64,000 bases of DNA from an uncultured Eubacteriales bacterium (GCA_934467415.1 CAKSLQ010000003.1:77957-141956), one strand, 5' to 3'; shown: positions 9,731 through 61,718, counted from the stretch's first letter. A program made the numbers and translations. Notes: generated by a model from the sequence alone, not told the origin.

Positions 9731-9778
9731 GCCTTCCCCAGTGGGGGAAGGTGTCGGCGGAGCCGACGGATGAGGTGT
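9731..9778 (-). repeat. solo HP-I arm (3'-arm type)
   Basis: GCCTTCCCC-AGTG-GGGGAAGG-T-GTCGGC-GGA-GCCGAC-GGATGAGGTGT. Nearly identical to the arm at 28513-28560. Confidence 0.8.
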
Positions 9779-9843: not shown

Positions 9844-9985
9844 CCGGTAGGGGTCGGCGCCCTCGACGACCCGCGCTCACCTTAGTGCAGGCGGGTGATT
9901 CGTGAATCGCCCCTACGGGATTGCAAAGGTTTTCGCGCACCGCACACCATTTTCACCGTAGGGCGGGGGCTTGCTCCCGCCGCAA
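9844..9985. repeat. mosaic of shared intergenic modules
   Basis: CCGGTAGGGGTCGGCGCCCTCGACGACCCGC (9844-9874) is the reverse complement of pieces at 55485-55499, 55587-55598 and 61565-61582. GTAGGGCGGGGGCTTGCTCCCGCCGCA (9958-9985) recurs at 55622-55648. Confidence 0.75.
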
Positions 9986-10007
9986 ATGTACGCGGACAAC
10001 TCTTTTT

Positions 10008-10118
10008 ACCTCCCTCGGTGAGGGAGGTGGCACGGCAACGCCGTGACGGAAGGAGTCTTGCTCTCTGCAAAACTCCCCCAGTCACCTATCGGTGACAGCC
10101 CCCTCAGCGAGGGGGCTG
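10008..10118 (-). repeat. HP-II five-hairpin element, copy 1 (inverted relative to the other two)
   Basis: Reverse complement aligns end to end with 50671-50778 and 61613-61718. Five consecutive stem-loops. Confidence 0.85.
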
Positions 10119-10962: not shown

Positions 10963-11068
10963 GCCTCCCTTGTGTAAAGGGAGTGTGTCCCGAAACGCAA
11001 GCGTTCCTAATGAGTTTCCCTTGCGGGAAACATCATCGCCGACGGAGGGATTGTTTTGTATGGAACAA

Positions 11069-11116
11069 CCCCTCAGTCACCTGACGGTGACAGCTCCCCT
11101 TGCACAGGGGAGCCTG
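11069..11116 (-). repeat. half HP-II element (hairpins 1-2 plus CTGAGGGG)
   Basis: CCCCTCAG-TCACC-TGAC-GGTGA-CAGCTCCCC-TTGCAC-AGGGGAGC. Reverse complement matches the left half of HP-II and the GGCTCCCCTGTGCAAGGGG module. Confidence 0.7.
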
Positions 11117-21685: not shown

Positions 21686-21852
21686 AAGTATTCTGCGTAT
21701 CCTCCGTGTTGTCGGACGGTTACCCGTCGGTTTTGCCGGAAGATGCGGCGGCAGTCCGCCGTCGGAGCATCCGCCGAATGGGCAGGCGAGCCTGCCGCTC
21801 TCGATAACTCCGATCCTCGTTAACCGCGCGGTGCGCGGTCTGGCGCTAAAGG
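21686..21852 (-). ncRNA. glmS: glmS ribozyme (GlcN6P-activated)
   Basis: The minus strand reads ..UUU-AGCGCCAGACCGCG..GGUUAACGAGGAUCGGAGUUAUCGAGAGCGG..UUCGGCGGAUGCUCC.., matching the conserved glmS core and cleavage-site context. Lies directly 5' of glmS. Confidence 0.9.
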
Positions 21853-21934
21853 CGCGGCACATGTGCCGACGCCCTTTTCATGAGCGTATATTTTCTGCGG
21901 CTCCGCCGCGGAAAAACAAAATATGAAATCCCGT

Positions 21935-27630: not shown

Positions 27631-28320
27631 ATGACTGGAAAGAAGTATATTGAAAGCTCGAAGCTGATCGACAAGAGCAAGCTTTACGACGCATCCGAGG
27701 CTGTTGCACTCGTATGCCAGACCGCGAAGGCAAAGTTCGACGAGACCGTCGAGCTGCACGTCCGTCTCGGCGTTGACTCCCGTCACGCAGACCAGCAGGT
27801 CCGCGGCGCGATCGTTCTCCCCAACGGTACCGGTAAGACCGTCCGCACCCTCGTTTTTGCAAAGGGTGACAAGGCGACTGCCGCAACCGAGGCCGGTGCC
27901 GACTATGTCGGCGCTGAGGACATGGTCCAGAAGATCACGACCGAGAACTGGTTCGACTTTGACGTCGTTATCGCAACGCCCGACATGATGGGTGTGATCG
28001 GCCGTCTCGGTAAGGTGCTCGGTCCTAAGGGCCTGATGCCGAACCCGAAGGCAGGCACGGTCACGATGGACGTTGCCAAGGCCGTCAAGGAAGCAAAGGC
28101 CGGTAAGATCGAGTATCGTCTCGACAAGACCAACATCATCCACTGCCCGATCGGCAAGGCGTCTTTCGGTGCAGAGAAGATCGGCGAGAACTTTGACGCG
28201 ATCATGACCGCGATCATCAAGGCGAAGCCGGCAGCAGCAAAGGGTCAGTACATCAAGAGCTGCGTAATCGCAACCACGATGGGCCCGGGTGTAAAGGTCA
28301 ACTACGCAAAGCTGGGCTGA
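27631..28320 (+). CDS. rplA: 50S ribosomal protein L1
   Basis: ..[38 protein letters not shown].. Confidence 0.95.
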
Positions 28321-28349
28321 GTTACAACTTGAATCTTTTGCACAGAACA

Positions 28350-28383
28350 AAAACCACGGAGAGGTTTCTCCGTGGTTTTTTCT
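28350..28383 (+). terminator. rho-independent terminator after rplA
   Basis: CCACGGAG / CTCCGTGG stem followed by a T7 tract. Confidence 0.85.
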
Positions 28384-28512
28384 TGCCGCAAGCCGACTTG
28401 CTTGATAATCATAAAGCGGCGCCGTCTTGCGGCAAGTCTGTACAAAATCTGCTGTGCCGTGGACGCAGCCATTGACAAAGTGTATATGTGAAGTGTAATG
28501 CTTGCGCTTATA

Positions 28513-28985
28513 GCCTTCTCCAGTGGGAGAAGGTGGCGGCGCAGCCGTCGGATGAGGTGTTTACGACAGCTGCAAGCTGTCGTAATCCAAGCACAGCTTG
28601 TCCAGTATATCTGCGGTTACAGAACCGAAGTTTTTGCGGATACTATCATTGGAATAACGAAGCACAGTAATCCCCCACAGGGCAAGCTTCTCATCTCTTT
28701 GTGCATCAGTTTGTACATGTGCATCGGACAGATGCTGTTTTCCGTCTACTTCAATCGCTATTTTTTTCTCTGCAATATAAAAGTCCAGAATATAGTTTTC
28801 AATATTGTGTTGACGCCTCACATTGCAGGGAAGTTTTTTCAGAAAGTCATACCAAAGATGCTTTTCTTCCGGTGTCATATTTTTACGAAGCGTTCGCGCG
28901 TTTTGGACAAGCTTTTTATTATATGGCAGCATGGCTACTCCTCATCCACCGCTGACGCGGTCCCCCTTCTCCCGCAGGAGAAGGC
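28513..28985 (-). mobile_element. candidate selfish element: DUF559 endonuclease ORF bracketed by double-hairpin inverted arms (HP-I, full-length form)
   Basis: Arms at 28513-28560 and 28938-28985. Each reads GCCTTCTCC-N4-GGAGAAGG, then a second hairpin, then GGATGAGG, in inverted orientation. The interior is visibly AT-rich compared with the flanks. The same arms occur without an ORF elsewhere in the window. Confidence 0.55.
28561..28932 (-). CDS. DUF559 domain endonuclease (Vsr-like PD-(D/E)XK fold)
   Basis: ..NYILDFYIAEKKIAIEVDGKQH..RDEKLALWGITVLRYSN.. is the typical DUF559 core. SD GAGGAG lies 5 nt before the ATG. Confidence 0.8.
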   Translation of the reverse strand: MLPYNKKLVQNARTLRKNMTPEEKHLWYDFLKKLPCNVRRQHNIENYILDFYIAEKKIAIEVDGKQHLSDAHVQTDAQRDEKLALWGITVLRYSNDSIRKNFGSVTADILDKLCLDYDSLQLS

Positions 28986-29018
28986 TTTTTTAGTTGTTCG
29001 GCAAAGCTTGTTCGCCCC

Positions 29019-34550: not shown

Positions 34551-34652
34551 CCGTACAGCGGGATGCGGAATACGCACCGCAGGGCAAAGCCCTTTCGTCC
34601 GCTCCGCAACTCCCCGTCGGGGCGGCACTGTACGCGCGCATTCCTACTCTGT
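34551..34652 (-). promoter_or_regulatory. THF (tetrahydrofolate) riboswitch aptamer
   Basis: The minus strand reads ACAGAGUAGGAAUGCGCGCGU..GGGGAGUUGCGGAGCGGACGAAAG..CUGCGGUGCGUAUUCCGCAUCCCGCUGU. This matches the conserved AGAGUAG / GCGU / CGCGGUG / GCAUCCGCU elements of the THF-I class. Located 5' of folT. Confidence 0.8.
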
Positions 34653-34716
34653 AATTTAATCAGTTGAAAAATTCTGTTCTTCAACTGCCGACTCTATTAT
34701 AGTCGCTTTCTGCGGC

Positions 34717-50670: not shown

Positions 50671-50778
50671 CAGCCCCCTCGGTGAGGGGGCTGTCACCGA
50701 TAGGTGACTGGGGGAGTTTTGCAGAGAGCAAGACTCCTTCCGTCGCCGTTCGGCGACACCTCCCTCACCGAGGGAGGT
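50671..50778 (+). repeat. HP-II five-hairpin element, copy 2
   Basis: CAGCCCCCT..AGGGGGCTG, TCACC-GATA-GGTGA, GGAGTTTTGC..GCAAGACTCC, GTCGCC-GTTC-GGCGAC, CCTCCCT..AGGGAGG. Confidence 0.85.
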
Positions 50779-55365: not shown

Positions 55366-55781
55366 GGGAACGCGCAAACCGCACGGGGGCTTACTCCCGC
55401 CGTCCGAACCCAATCTGACTTTGGCTCCTCCTGACGGGGGAGCTGTCGCCGTAGGCGACTGAGGGAGAGATAACGCAAAGCAAGGCGGGTCGTCGAGGGA
55501 TGTTTTTCGGTTTCGCTTTGCGAAATCGTCGGTGTTCAGCCGACGAAGAAAAACTCCTTAGGAACACATCGTGTTCCGGGGGTCATGACCCCTACCGGAT
55601 TGTACAAAAGACGCACACACTGTAGGGCGGGGGCTTGCTCCCGCCGCACCTGCTCATACAAAACAATCATTCCCCGGTTGTTATTTTACTTTGCAAAAGA
55701 CACCTCATCCGTCGCCGTTCGGCGACACCTTCCCCCGCTGGGGAAGGCAAAGAACGCGGGTGACCGTACCGTTCTAACCAA
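55366..55781. repeat. dense mosaic of intergenic hairpin modules
   Basis: Contains a half HP-II (55423-55468), the ~60-nt shared module (55499-55557), GTAGGGCGGGGGCTTGCTCCCGCCGCA (55622-55648) and a solo HP-I 3' arm (55700-55748). Confidence 0.8.
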
Positions 55782-55944
55782 GCCTTCCCCCTTGGGGGAA
55801 GGTGGCGTGTAATACGCCGGATGAGGGGTAGCCATTCGTCAGAATGGCGTCTCACAGCACAGAACGAGACTGCGCAGACGGATGCTTACGCATCCTACCC
55901 CTCATCAGTCAACTCCGTTGACAGCTTCCCCCAAGGGGGAAGCC
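55782..55944. repeat. HP-I miniature (gene-less, symmetric arms)
   Basis: A and B hairpins, then GGATGAGGGGTA, then three small hairpins, then TACCCCTCATC followed by B' and A' hairpins. Confidence 0.85.
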
Positions 55945-56117
55945 AAAAGACGCTTTGCGTCTCGTACGGCTCTCCCCACCGGGGAAGCCTAAGGGCGAAG
56001 AGCGCTTTCTTCTCCGCTTCCCGCAAACAACCCGCCGGAAACGGCGTATTTTTTGTATTTACTTGCCGGGCGGCGGATGCTATGATTGAAATAGGAAAAA
56101 ACGCGGAGGAAACCGAC

Positions 56118-61420: not shown

Positions 61421-61559
61421 GCCTTCCCCTTGGGGGAAGGGGGACCGCACCCGCGGTGGATGAGGGATTGCAGGCAGCAGGCACAGCATTGTGTGATGCT
61501 TTGCTTGCATCAATCCCTCATCAGTCGCCTACGGCGACAGCTTCCCCAATGGGGAAGCC
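61421..61559 (+). repeat. HP-I miniature (gene-less, with 5'-arm and 3'-arm polarity like the DUF559 copy)
   Basis: Left arm ..GGGGAAGG-GGG-ACCGC-ACCC-GCGGT-GGATGAGGGATT. Right arm AATCCCTCATC-A-GTCGCC-TAC-GGCGAC-A-GCTTCCCC-AAT-GGGGAAGC. Confidence 0.85.
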
Positions 61560-61612
61560 TAAGAGGCGCCGACCCCTACCGGGTTTGTGGAGAATCTGCA
61601 CAATCTGTCTTT

Positions 61613-61718
61613 CAGCTCCCTCGGTGAGGGAGCTGTCGCCGAAGGCGACTGAGGGAGTTTTGCTCTGAGCGAAACTCCTTCCACCGCTGGCGCGGTCCCC
61701 CTCCCTCAATGAGGGAGG
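61613..61718 (+). repeat. HP-II five-hairpin element, copy 3
   Basis: Colinear with 50671-50778. Stems differ by paired substitutions. Confidence 0.85.

Follow-up and report, generated by a model that had tools for sequence, protein, structure and literature searches.

A two-hairpin repeat with a stem-mirroring purine tail, a candidate intrastrand triplex module, is associated with DUF559 genes in Clostridia and Proteobacteria

The BoxC/PIT/TM repeats have been known in Escherichia coli since the 1990s and mark unstable loci; to our knowledge no function, origin or associated protein was known for them before. The intrastrand triplex motif of the BoxC/PIT/TM_ECO type is attributed to Hoyne et al. 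(2000) and Holder et al. (2015); Salmonella is reported to lack TM_ECO. Here we describe repeats of comparable design in a stretch of 64,000 nucleotides from an uncultured Eubacteriales bacterium (GCA_934467415.1, CAKSLQ010000003.1:77957-141956), which as a whole is called the window below. The repeats are arms composed of two hairpins and a purine tail, two of which bracket a gene for a DUF559 protein. The analysis followed up an earlier note, made from the sequence of the window alone, that had singled out a solo arm at 9731-9778.

BoxC/PIT was renamed TM_ECO, with the pattern CCCTCNCCC N3-6 GGGNGAGGG N3 GGGNGAGGG, and is classified as a class II intrastrand triplex of the purine motif; in vitro, the triplex was established by nuclear magnetic resonance (NMR) (PMC4666352). 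The 3,610 copies found in 262 proteobacterial genomes often form inverted pairs of two subtypes and are tied to local genome instability, and the authors found no associated transposase or integrase (PMC4666352). In published triplex searches the second loop was limited to 0-10 or 1-6 nt (PMC4666352), so that arms with a hairpin of 13-40 nt in place of the second loop would be missed. Holder et al. 2015 mentions neither Clostridia, Firmicutes, ycjD nor DUF559 (PMC4666352).

Similar to TM_ECO, the arms of the window have on one strand a pyrimidine tract, a loop, a purine tract, a second loop and a mirror purine tract that has T at its centre (GGGTGAGGG in TM_ECO, GGATGAGG in the arms). Both are intergenic and multi-copy and are connected with local rearrangement, and both often occur as inverted pairs of two subtypes, A and B for TM_ECO and GCC.. 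and GGC.. for the arms. The tract is 9 bp in TM_ECO and 8 bp in the arms, which with CCTTCYCC...GGRGAAGG...GGATGAGG fail the TM_ECO consensus. The second loop of TM_ECO is only 3 nt long, whereas that of the arms is a hairpin of 13-40 nt, outside the short-loop definition. Furthermore, TM_ECO is found in Proteobacteria and Cyanobacteria and the arms in Clostridia, and the arms bracket a DUF559 gene whereas the TM_ECO paper reports no nearby mobility-type gene. What the arms do possess of class II is the same-strand pyrimidine/purine hairpin followed on its 3' side by a mirror tract with allowed triads. Judged by this sequence pattern, the arm is probably a class II intrastrand triplex module like BoxC/PIT/TM_ECO in which a second hairpin, hairpin B, replaces the short second loop.

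The REP/RAYT/REPIN systems are likewise based on short structured extragenic repeats that occur as singlets and as inverted pairs. There too, the repeats flank, in inverted orientation, a small vertically inherited nuclease gene at a fixed locus, and the presumed substrate is folded single-stranded DNA. However, RAYT is an HUH/Y1 transposase, unlike the PD-(D/E)XK DUF559 protein encoded here, and the GTAG guide motif of REP/RAYT is absent from the arms, which add a candidate third strand. The resemblance to IS200/IS605 and to their MITEs (miniature transposable elements with inverted repeats) lies in ends set by DNA secondary structure and not by plain inverted repeats, and no target-site duplication is seen here either; IS200/IS605 elements have TnpA/TnpB, which the arms do not, and the arm-bearing ends are inverted copies of each other.

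The arms of the main type in the window and the gene are the following.

9731-9778, plus strand: solo HP-I arm, C-G variant with 7/8 allowed triads; hairpin A 9732-9751, hairpin B 9753-9767
9768-9775, plus strand: purine tail of this solo arm, the candidate third strand (GGATGAGG)
28513-28563, plus strand: T-A variant with 8/8 triads, at the DUF559 gene's 3' end and in inverted orientation to it; hairpin A 28514-28533, hairpin B 28535-28549 with one G.T, tail 28550-28557
28561-28932, minus strand: DUF559 gene, 123 aa, predicted Vsr-like PD-(D/E)XK nuclease (Pfam PF04480)
28938-28987, minus strand: T-A variant at the DUF559 gene's 5' end, in sense orientation; hairpin B of the GGGGGACCGC...GCGGT type
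55700-55748, minus strand: second solo HP-I arm, C-G variant, head-to-head with and 34 bp from the 55782 pair
55782-55945, both strands: gene-less inverted pair, MITE-like; left arm 55782-55830 (plus), right arm 55897-55945 (minus)
61421-61558, both strands: gene-less inverted pair; arms 61421-61468 (plus) and 61508-61558 (minus)

Read on the plus strand, the solo arm at 9731-9778 consists of G, CCTTCCCC (9732-9739), AGTG, GGGGAAGG (9744-9751), T, GTCGGC (9753-9758), GGA, GCCGAC (9762-9767), GGATGAGG (9768-9775) and TGT. The arm at 28513-28563 reads G, CCTTCTCC (28514-28521), AGTG, GGAGAAGG (28526-28533), T, GGCGGC, GCA, GCCGTC, GGATGAGG (28550-28557) and TGTTT on the same strand, and the two have the loop AGTG and the tail GGATGAGGTGT in common. 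Hairpin B of the 28513 arm contains a single G.T (28536/28548), where the sister species has G-C. In the 5' arm of the gene (28938-28987), the tail GGATGAGGAG doubles as the DUF559 ribosome-binding site, 5 nt ahead of the ATG. The second loop, which forms hairpin B, spans 14-17 nt in the window; elsewhere it can reach about 40 nt. The sequence and hairpin layout that the earlier note gave for 9731-9778, 28513-28563 and 55700-55748 match the window DNA; its list of three arms was correct but omitted the DUF559 5' arm, the two gene-less inverted pairs and the sister families. Besides these three, the window holds five further arms of the same type and about eight of sister types. A module finder detected 18 modules in the window but none in any of five shuffles, and the pattern CCTTCYCCNNNNGGRGAAGG (at most 2 mismatches) had 7 matches against 0.07 expected. 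Folded as single-stranded DNA, the arms gave z-scores of -3.4 to -5.4.

The earlier note described two hairpins, and rightly so, but the arm contains more: the tail mirrors the purine strand of the stem and covaries with it as expected of a triplex third strand. Read in mirror order, the purine tail (GGATGAGG) repeats the purine strand of hairpin A; it is neither a direct nor an inverted repeat. With the purine-motif triads G.G-C, A.A-T and T.A-T taken as allowed, the DUF559 arms (purine strand GGAGAAGG, mirror GGAAGAGG, tail GGATGAGG) have eight allowed triads, one of them T.A-T. A generic scan that was blind to the tail, in which a pyrimidine/purine hairpin had to be followed by a second hairpin and the next 12 nt were then taken, yielded 95 distinct purine strands. 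The mirror-triad score averaged 0.74 over the 50 purine-tailed families, compared to 0.625 +/- 0.015 with permuted tails. A mirror score of at least 0.85 was reached by 21 of these families (null mean 5.2, maximum 12 in 2000 permutations), whereas only 3 families reached it when the tail was scored as a direct repeat. Stepwise correspondence of stem and tail is illustrated by GAGGGGGC with tail TGGGGGAG, GAGGGAGC with TGAGGGAG, AGGGGAGC with TGAGGGGT, GGGAGAGC with TGAGAGGG, AAGGGGGC with TGGGGGAT, AGAGAAGG and AGGGAAGG each with GGATGAGT, and GGGGAAGG with GGATGAGG.

The same rule appears in the individual bases. Among 240 combinations of stem and tail, the tail base opposite G was G in 1162 and A in 142 cases and the base opposite A was A in 328 and T in 234 cases, counts that are partly circular because the combinations were prefiltered at 75% allowed triads. 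The row for C is independent of this filter since T opposite C was not scored, and here T was found in 45 of 49 cases. The alternation of A and T opposite A-T pairs is a signature of the purine motif. In the independent YcjD loci (see below) mirror scoring was preferred over direct scoring by 40 to 13, with a permutation z of about 7. As no copying mechanism makes mirror repeats, the pattern argues for selection on the folded structure.

Other accounts of the tail were rejected. Taken as a direct repeat of the 3' half of the stem, capable of alternative pairing with the 5' half, it loses to mirror scoring in both comparisons (21 versus 3 and 40 versus 13). That the tail is just a Shine-Dalgarno sequence holds for the DUF559 5' arm but leaves the solo, 3'-end and paired arms and the mirror covariation unexplained. 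A G-quadruplex formed by the G-runs would have no need of the pyrimidine strand or of the A/T rules; NMR ruled out a quadruplex for TM_ECO (PMC4666352).

The compensatory swap in hairpin A to which the earlier note drew attention is real: the arm at the DUF559 3' end has T at 28519 and A at 28528, the solo arm C at 9737 and G at 9746. With a pattern that left the position free, 168 matches were obtained, of which 131 have C-G, 28 T-A, 2 A-T and 1 G-C; the 6 non-pairs are mostly coding false positives. The arms at 9731 and 28513 are not parent and daughter; T-A and C-G mark two old and abundant subfamilies. Beside DUF559 genes, T-A prevails (93 versus 29 C-G) and among gene-less copies in at least 120 viral-collection loci C-G does (140 versus 24 T-A), a contrast that is confounded by lineage. 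The window is divided in the same way, with T-A in 2/2 gene-flanking and C-G in 6/6 gene-less arms. The tail base that faces the swap pair is A in both variants, so that the T-A form has 8/8 and the C-G form 7/8 allowed triads. Among the single-step family comparisons inspected, the swap is the sole stem change that the third strand did not follow. We propose that the swap preserves hairpin A because the hairpin is required, and that it separates the gene-flanking variant, which would form a triplex of 8/8 triads, from the commoner gene-less variant with 7/8.

The earlier note also held that structure is selected rather than sequence, a claim that depends on an excess of compensatory over one-sided stem changes. 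Such an excess is present in gapless alignments of arms of the same length. For both helices together (35 arms) 98% of the positions are paired and 69 double-sided cells were counted, against 20.8 +/- 3.0 in shuffles; this number was attained by none of 500 shuffles and lies above every slid control as well. For stem A in 53 arms the values are 99.3% paired and 39 double-sided cells against 12.2 +/- 2.6. In a larger set of 237 distinct arms, in which the 5' strand was left unconstrained, 1886 of 1896 stem A pairs (99.5%) are Watson-Crick, 3 arms are unpaired at the swap position, and G.T pairs are rare, at about 1% in stem B and 0.1% in stem A. Hairpin B covaries widely: 4 of its 6 pairs covary in the 35-arm alignment, in which no pair of either helix varies on one side only, and 34 different stem sequences occur among 154 arms. 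The hairpin structure is under selection. The hairpin-templated repair that the earlier note had offered as an alternative may have acted on the stems; mirror-repeat covariation lies beyond its reach and needs selection on the folded structure.

Sequence comparison clearly places the gene between two arms in the DUF559 family. The open reading frame (ORF) matches PF04480 with 94.3 bits (cut-off 20.6), and the only other Pfam match is MTES_1575, below its cut-off. Among solved structures, PDB 3HRL, which has no assigned function, is closest to the family profile (E=2.9e-23). The profile also matches 3R3P, the mobile-intron endonuclease I-Bth0305I (E=8.5e-5), and the DUF559 protein has the small Vsr-like nuclease core of the Vsr / I-Bth0305I (EDxHD) family. 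Unlike I-Bth0305I, the DUF559 gene lies outside an intron or intein. D50, E61, D63 and H67 are invariant from the protein of the window to E. coli YcjD, and the protein probably acts as a nuclease. A further hairpin, ACGACAGCTGCAAGCTGTCGT, follows directly after the tail of the 3' arm (28561-28585), over the last codons and the stop codon of DUF559. Arms on phage-like contigs too carry a third hairpin 3' of the tail.

In all strains and in the sister species, the gene with both arms is located between an Rce1-like gene and rplA, and the proteins of the two species are 90% identical. The dN/dS (ratio of nonsynonymous to synonymous substitution rates) of the gene is 0.11 against the sister species. 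About 35% of the synonymous sites have changed as compared to only 3 of 103 arm bases, so that the arms are under purifying selection in place. Solo arm 9731 is identical in the three other strains that cover the site. The intergenic segment between DUF559 and rplA varies by strain indels of 46-182 bp (L209 10473-10685 compared with L210, L211 and L213; about 28320-28510 in the window), which consist of repeated units of the CAGATTTTGTACAGACTTG... type unrelated to the arms.

The association with DUF559 genes extends beyond this locus and was scored in two sets. The Clostridia set of 80 listed genome loci was found through the DUF559 protein. In these loci DUF559 is bracketed by inverted arms, and the tail of the 5' arm (GGATGAGGAGT), 4-6 nt ahead of the ATG, is the ribosome-binding site. 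A module was present at the 5' end on the plus strand in 52/76 and at the 3' end on the minus strand in 59/79 loci; both ends were occupied in 45/75 and either end in 62/75, at a background of 0.27 modules per kb. The YcjD set came from a metagenome scan (80 loci listed), and the counts use homologues below 70% identity. Here the 5' end (plus) carried a module in 21/50, the 3' end (minus) in 33/48, both ends in 15/46 and either end in 37/46, with a background of 0.65 per kb or about 0.055 expected per search window. The association with the gene is therefore present in two phyla. In several YcjD loci the second-loop hairpin begins with GGGACC, as in the Clostridial 5' arm. In six loci of YcjD homologues (L274, L275, L280, L282, L293 and L304, presumably non-Clostridial) the second-loop hairpin starts with AGGGACCC and ends with GGGA. 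The similarity of these AGGGACCC...GGGA loops to the Clostridial GGGGGACCGC...GCGGT hints at common descent of the long-loop form.

In E. coli, ycjD was the only DUF559 gene examined (locus L226, 11030-11840, corresponding to about 1351029-1351839 of MG1655, NC_000913.3). A canonical TM_ECO/BoxC repeat lies 168 bp downstream of it, and the TM_ECO pattern matches once in the E. coli stretch examined. A decayed inverted motif covers the last codons, and a fragment of the 3' end of the gene is duplicated (GGAGACGGTGCTGGAGAATATTC...). Upstream of ycjD, an inverted repeat TCACCTCATTCTGACA...TGTCAGAATGAGGTGA holds the GTG start. We found no paper in the openly searchable literature that links DUF559/YcjD to inverted repeats, mobile elements or triplex structures.

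To account for these findings we propose a module built on one strand from a pyrimidine tract and its purine complement with a loop between them, followed by hairpin B, whose sequence is free, and by the mirror purine tail. In single-stranded DNA the tail would turn back and lie in the major groove of hairpin A, running antiparallel to the purine strand, and would so give a purine-motif triple helix. Two inverted modules would form the ends of a small unit that encodes the DUF559 (Vsr-like) nuclease, while gene-less pairs and single modules would be non-autonomous relatives dispersed in intergenic DNA. The DUF559 protein may recognise or nick the folded module and thereby maintain or spread the repeats, in parallel to the RAYT transposase, which is flanked by REP sequences and has dispersed REPINs. 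We regard the structural and association core of this proposal, a triplex-type module linked to DUF559, as reasonably probable. That DUF559 is the true partner enzyme of these modules is put forward tentatively, at somewhat below an even chance. Equally tentative, and leaning slightly to the negative, is the wider idea that DUF559/YcjD nucleases are the missing partners of intrastrand-triplex repeats across phyla, together forming a selfish or domesticated class like REP/RAYT but with recognition of a triple helix.

New in these data are a Firmicutes branch of the BoxC/TM design, missed earlier since its second loop is a hairpin, comparative evidence of the covariation type for selection on the third strand, and a positional link of triplex-type repeats to DUF559 genes in Clostridia and Proteobacteria, including E. 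coli ycjD. The link offers a candidate partner enzyme for the repeats and a testable function for a very large family with a domain of unknown function, and makes the old BoxC question experimentally direct, with a 120-aa protein and 48-nt oligonucleotides. If DUF559 is indeed the partner of triplex repeats, this would be rare comparative evidence for a DNA triplex as a selected biological structure.

Several observations weigh against this proposal. Formation of a triplex by the arm is a candidate property read from its bases, and for TM_ECO in vivo probing with dimethyl sulfate (DMS) gave no protection (PMC4666352). The tail did not covary at the flagged pair, and most gene-less copies have A opposite G-C. 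The families share descent and the permutation tests therefore overstate their independence. The tail upstream of the gene is also a ribosome-binding site, which contributes to its conservation there, and the enterobacterial relatives of YcjD have modules at the 3' end of the gene only. With respect to mobility, 18 comparisons of filled and empty sites (phage-like contigs and strains) revealed no clean insertion event and no consistent target-site duplication, and, as the DUF559 unit stayed stable through speciation, mobility of its own is a candidate property as well.

The boundaries in these comparisons carry direct repeats of 5-10 bp (GGTGA or TCACCTCATC) and can be read as deletions, the direction being ambiguous; in at least one case a deletion seems indicated because a diverged outgroup phage has an arm at the same site. 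With regard to classical MITEs of DDE transposons, which have terminal inverted repeats and a target-site duplication of fixed length, inverted ends are present here; the flanks are A/T-rich, and the 5-10 bp direct repeats could equally mark deletions. The earlier note had suggested looking for decayed DUF559 remnants beside the solo arms; relaxed tblastn and blastn-short searches around the solo arms and pairs find only the gene itself.

The alternative that survives best, though we consider it unlikely, is that a selfish DUF559 gene of the homing type invaded the centre of existing inverted pairs, in which case the arms would be target or homology arms and the pairs would have spread by other means. 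The match of the DUF559 profile to I-Bth0305I (3R3P, E=8.5e-5) is in line with this, as are the position of the gene exactly between two modules and the large excess of gene-less over gene-containing pairs; moreover, 0 of the at least 120 arm-bearing viral-collection loci carry the gene. However, we found no case of an empty pair in one genome whose orthologous site in another holds the gene-filled form, and fixation of the gene at one locus across species under purifying selection is unlike the turnover typical of homing genes. The 55782 pair is informative too, with GCCTTC...GGATGAGG as its left arm and GGCTTC...TGATGAGG as its right arm. Its interior starts with GTAGCCAT, 8 nt also found leading into the DUF559 start codon, and retention of this gene leader and start suggests descent from a gene-bearing unit by internal deletion. 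The viral-collection loci (L001-L120) were collected with a pattern that leaves the swap position and hairpin B free, and none encodes a DUF559 homologue. Their arms often lie between a stop codon and the ribosome-binding site of the next gene, and the pyrimidine run 5' of hairpin A gives a new Shine-Dalgarno sequence on the opposite strand.

It is quite improbable that the arms act as RNA, either as a small structured RNA or as a cis-acting mRNA element with a Shine-Dalgarno-like tail, the mirror symmetry then being incidental. The closest described RNA is Whalefall-1 (Rfam RF01762), which follows the same plan of a pyrimidine/purine hairpin, a second hairpin and a purine tail (UCuCuCC-UUGG-GGaGaGA...AGgGuGAGGAC) and whose tail also fits the mirror rule. 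It is an RNA of unknown function from one whale-fall metagenome only. Its authors graded it as certainly RNA (PMC2864571). The Whalefall-1 model matches the arms weakly, with 16.9 bits (55892-55945, minus strand) and 10.6 bits, far under the gathering threshold of 37 bits. The use of the upstream tail as the DUF559 ribosome-binding site and the location of arms in transcribed intergenic spacers of phage-like operons would agree with an RNA function, but relative to neighbouring genes the arms lie in either orientation and also as inverted pairs, and G.T pairs are unusually few for an RNA family. Moreover, the triads obey the purine motif, and purine-motif triplexes are stated not to form in RNA (PMC4666352); read from the complementary strand, a pyrimidine-motif RNA triplex would have a mismatch at the conserved central T. 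We infer action in DNA rather than RNA, towards which the rare G.T pairs and the two orientations lean.

Just as improbable in our view are ordinary REP-like palindromes, in which only the two hairpins matter and the tail is a protein- or ribosome-binding sequence that forms no triplex. Hairpin covariation is the strongest signal in the data, the tail is unchanged at the flagged swap, and the DMS probing of TM_ECO in vivo gave no evidence for a triplex (PMC4666352), all of which this explanation accommodates. Tails change with their stems in mirror register in more than 20 families, however, which a fixed binding site would not do, direct-repeat scoring fails (3 versus 21 families), and the T-facing-C rule lay outside the scoring.

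Hardly credible, finally, is the absence of any selection on structure, with stems restored by template switching in quasi-palindromes or by gene conversion among selfish copies: one-sided stem changes are nearly absent, as templated correction predicts, and a different pair at the same site in one strain points to exchange between copies, but tails track stems although no copying mechanism templates a mirror repeat, the low number of changed arm bases relative to synonymous sites indicates purifying selection that includes unpaired bases, and an uncorrected G.T persists in the DUF559 3' arm. The strain in question (L216) has at the 55782-55945 site a different inverted pair that resembles the 61421-61558 pair and has a truncated right arm, which suggests exchange or conversion between copies.

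Sister families of the module, with other stem sequences and tails, are found at five further positions of the window.

10009-10116, both strands: inverted pair of sister families, CCTCCCTC/GAGGGAGG with tail GGAAGGAG (plus) and GCCCCCTC/GAGGGGGC with tail TGGGGGAG (minus)
11067-11113, minus strand: single sister-family module, GCTCCCCTG/AAGGGGAGC with tail TGAGGGGTT, 9/9 triads
50673-50777, both strands: second copy of the 10009-10116 pair, in opposite orientation
55423-55467, plus strand: single sister-family module, GCTCCTCC/GGGGGAGC (one T.G) with tail TGAGGGAG
61615-61718, both strands: inverted pair of sister families, GCTCCCTC/GAGGGAGC with tail TGAGGGAG (plus) and an CCTCCCTC/GAGGGAGG module (minus)

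The single module at 55423-55467 extends into a full pair in strain L219. In the right-hand arms of the gene-less pairs (55897-55945 and 61508-61558, both minus) the outer stem pair is inverted (GCTTCCCC/GGGGAAGC) and the first tail base is T instead of G, which yields CTGATGAG, a sequence resembling the hammerhead core. A hammerhead ribozyme, defined by a CUGAUGA core, stem II, GAAA and a three-way junction, was rejected, as these arms have no stem II and no GAAA and gave no hammerhead match in Rfam even at E<=10. In a scan of the window at gathering thresholds no Rfam family covers the arms, and permissive scans gave chance miRNA matches besides the weak Whalefall-1 match. At gathering thresholds the window contains just two Rfam families, a THF riboswitch (34554-34653, minus strand, 94 bits) and a glmS ribozyme (21689-21858, minus strand, 63.9 bits).

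The intergenic spacers around the arms are mosaics of several repeat classes. Other intergenic repeat families lie among the arms at 9846-9878, 55575-55600 and 61568-61590 and at 55622-55650 and about 9985-10000, and include units of the CCGGTAGGGGTCGGCGCCCTCGACGACCC and GTAGGGCGGGGGCTTGCTCCCGCCGC types. In practical terms, the arms break metagenome assemblies and create spurious ORFs in gut Clostridia. Homologues of the DUF559 protein number 4,814, many of which sit on very short contigs, in keeping with a repeat that disrupts assemblies. The closest genome records are metagenome-assembled genomes from gut and rumen labelled Eubacteriales, Clostridia or Oscillospiraceae, and the exact DUF559 protein occurs in human-gut metagenomes.

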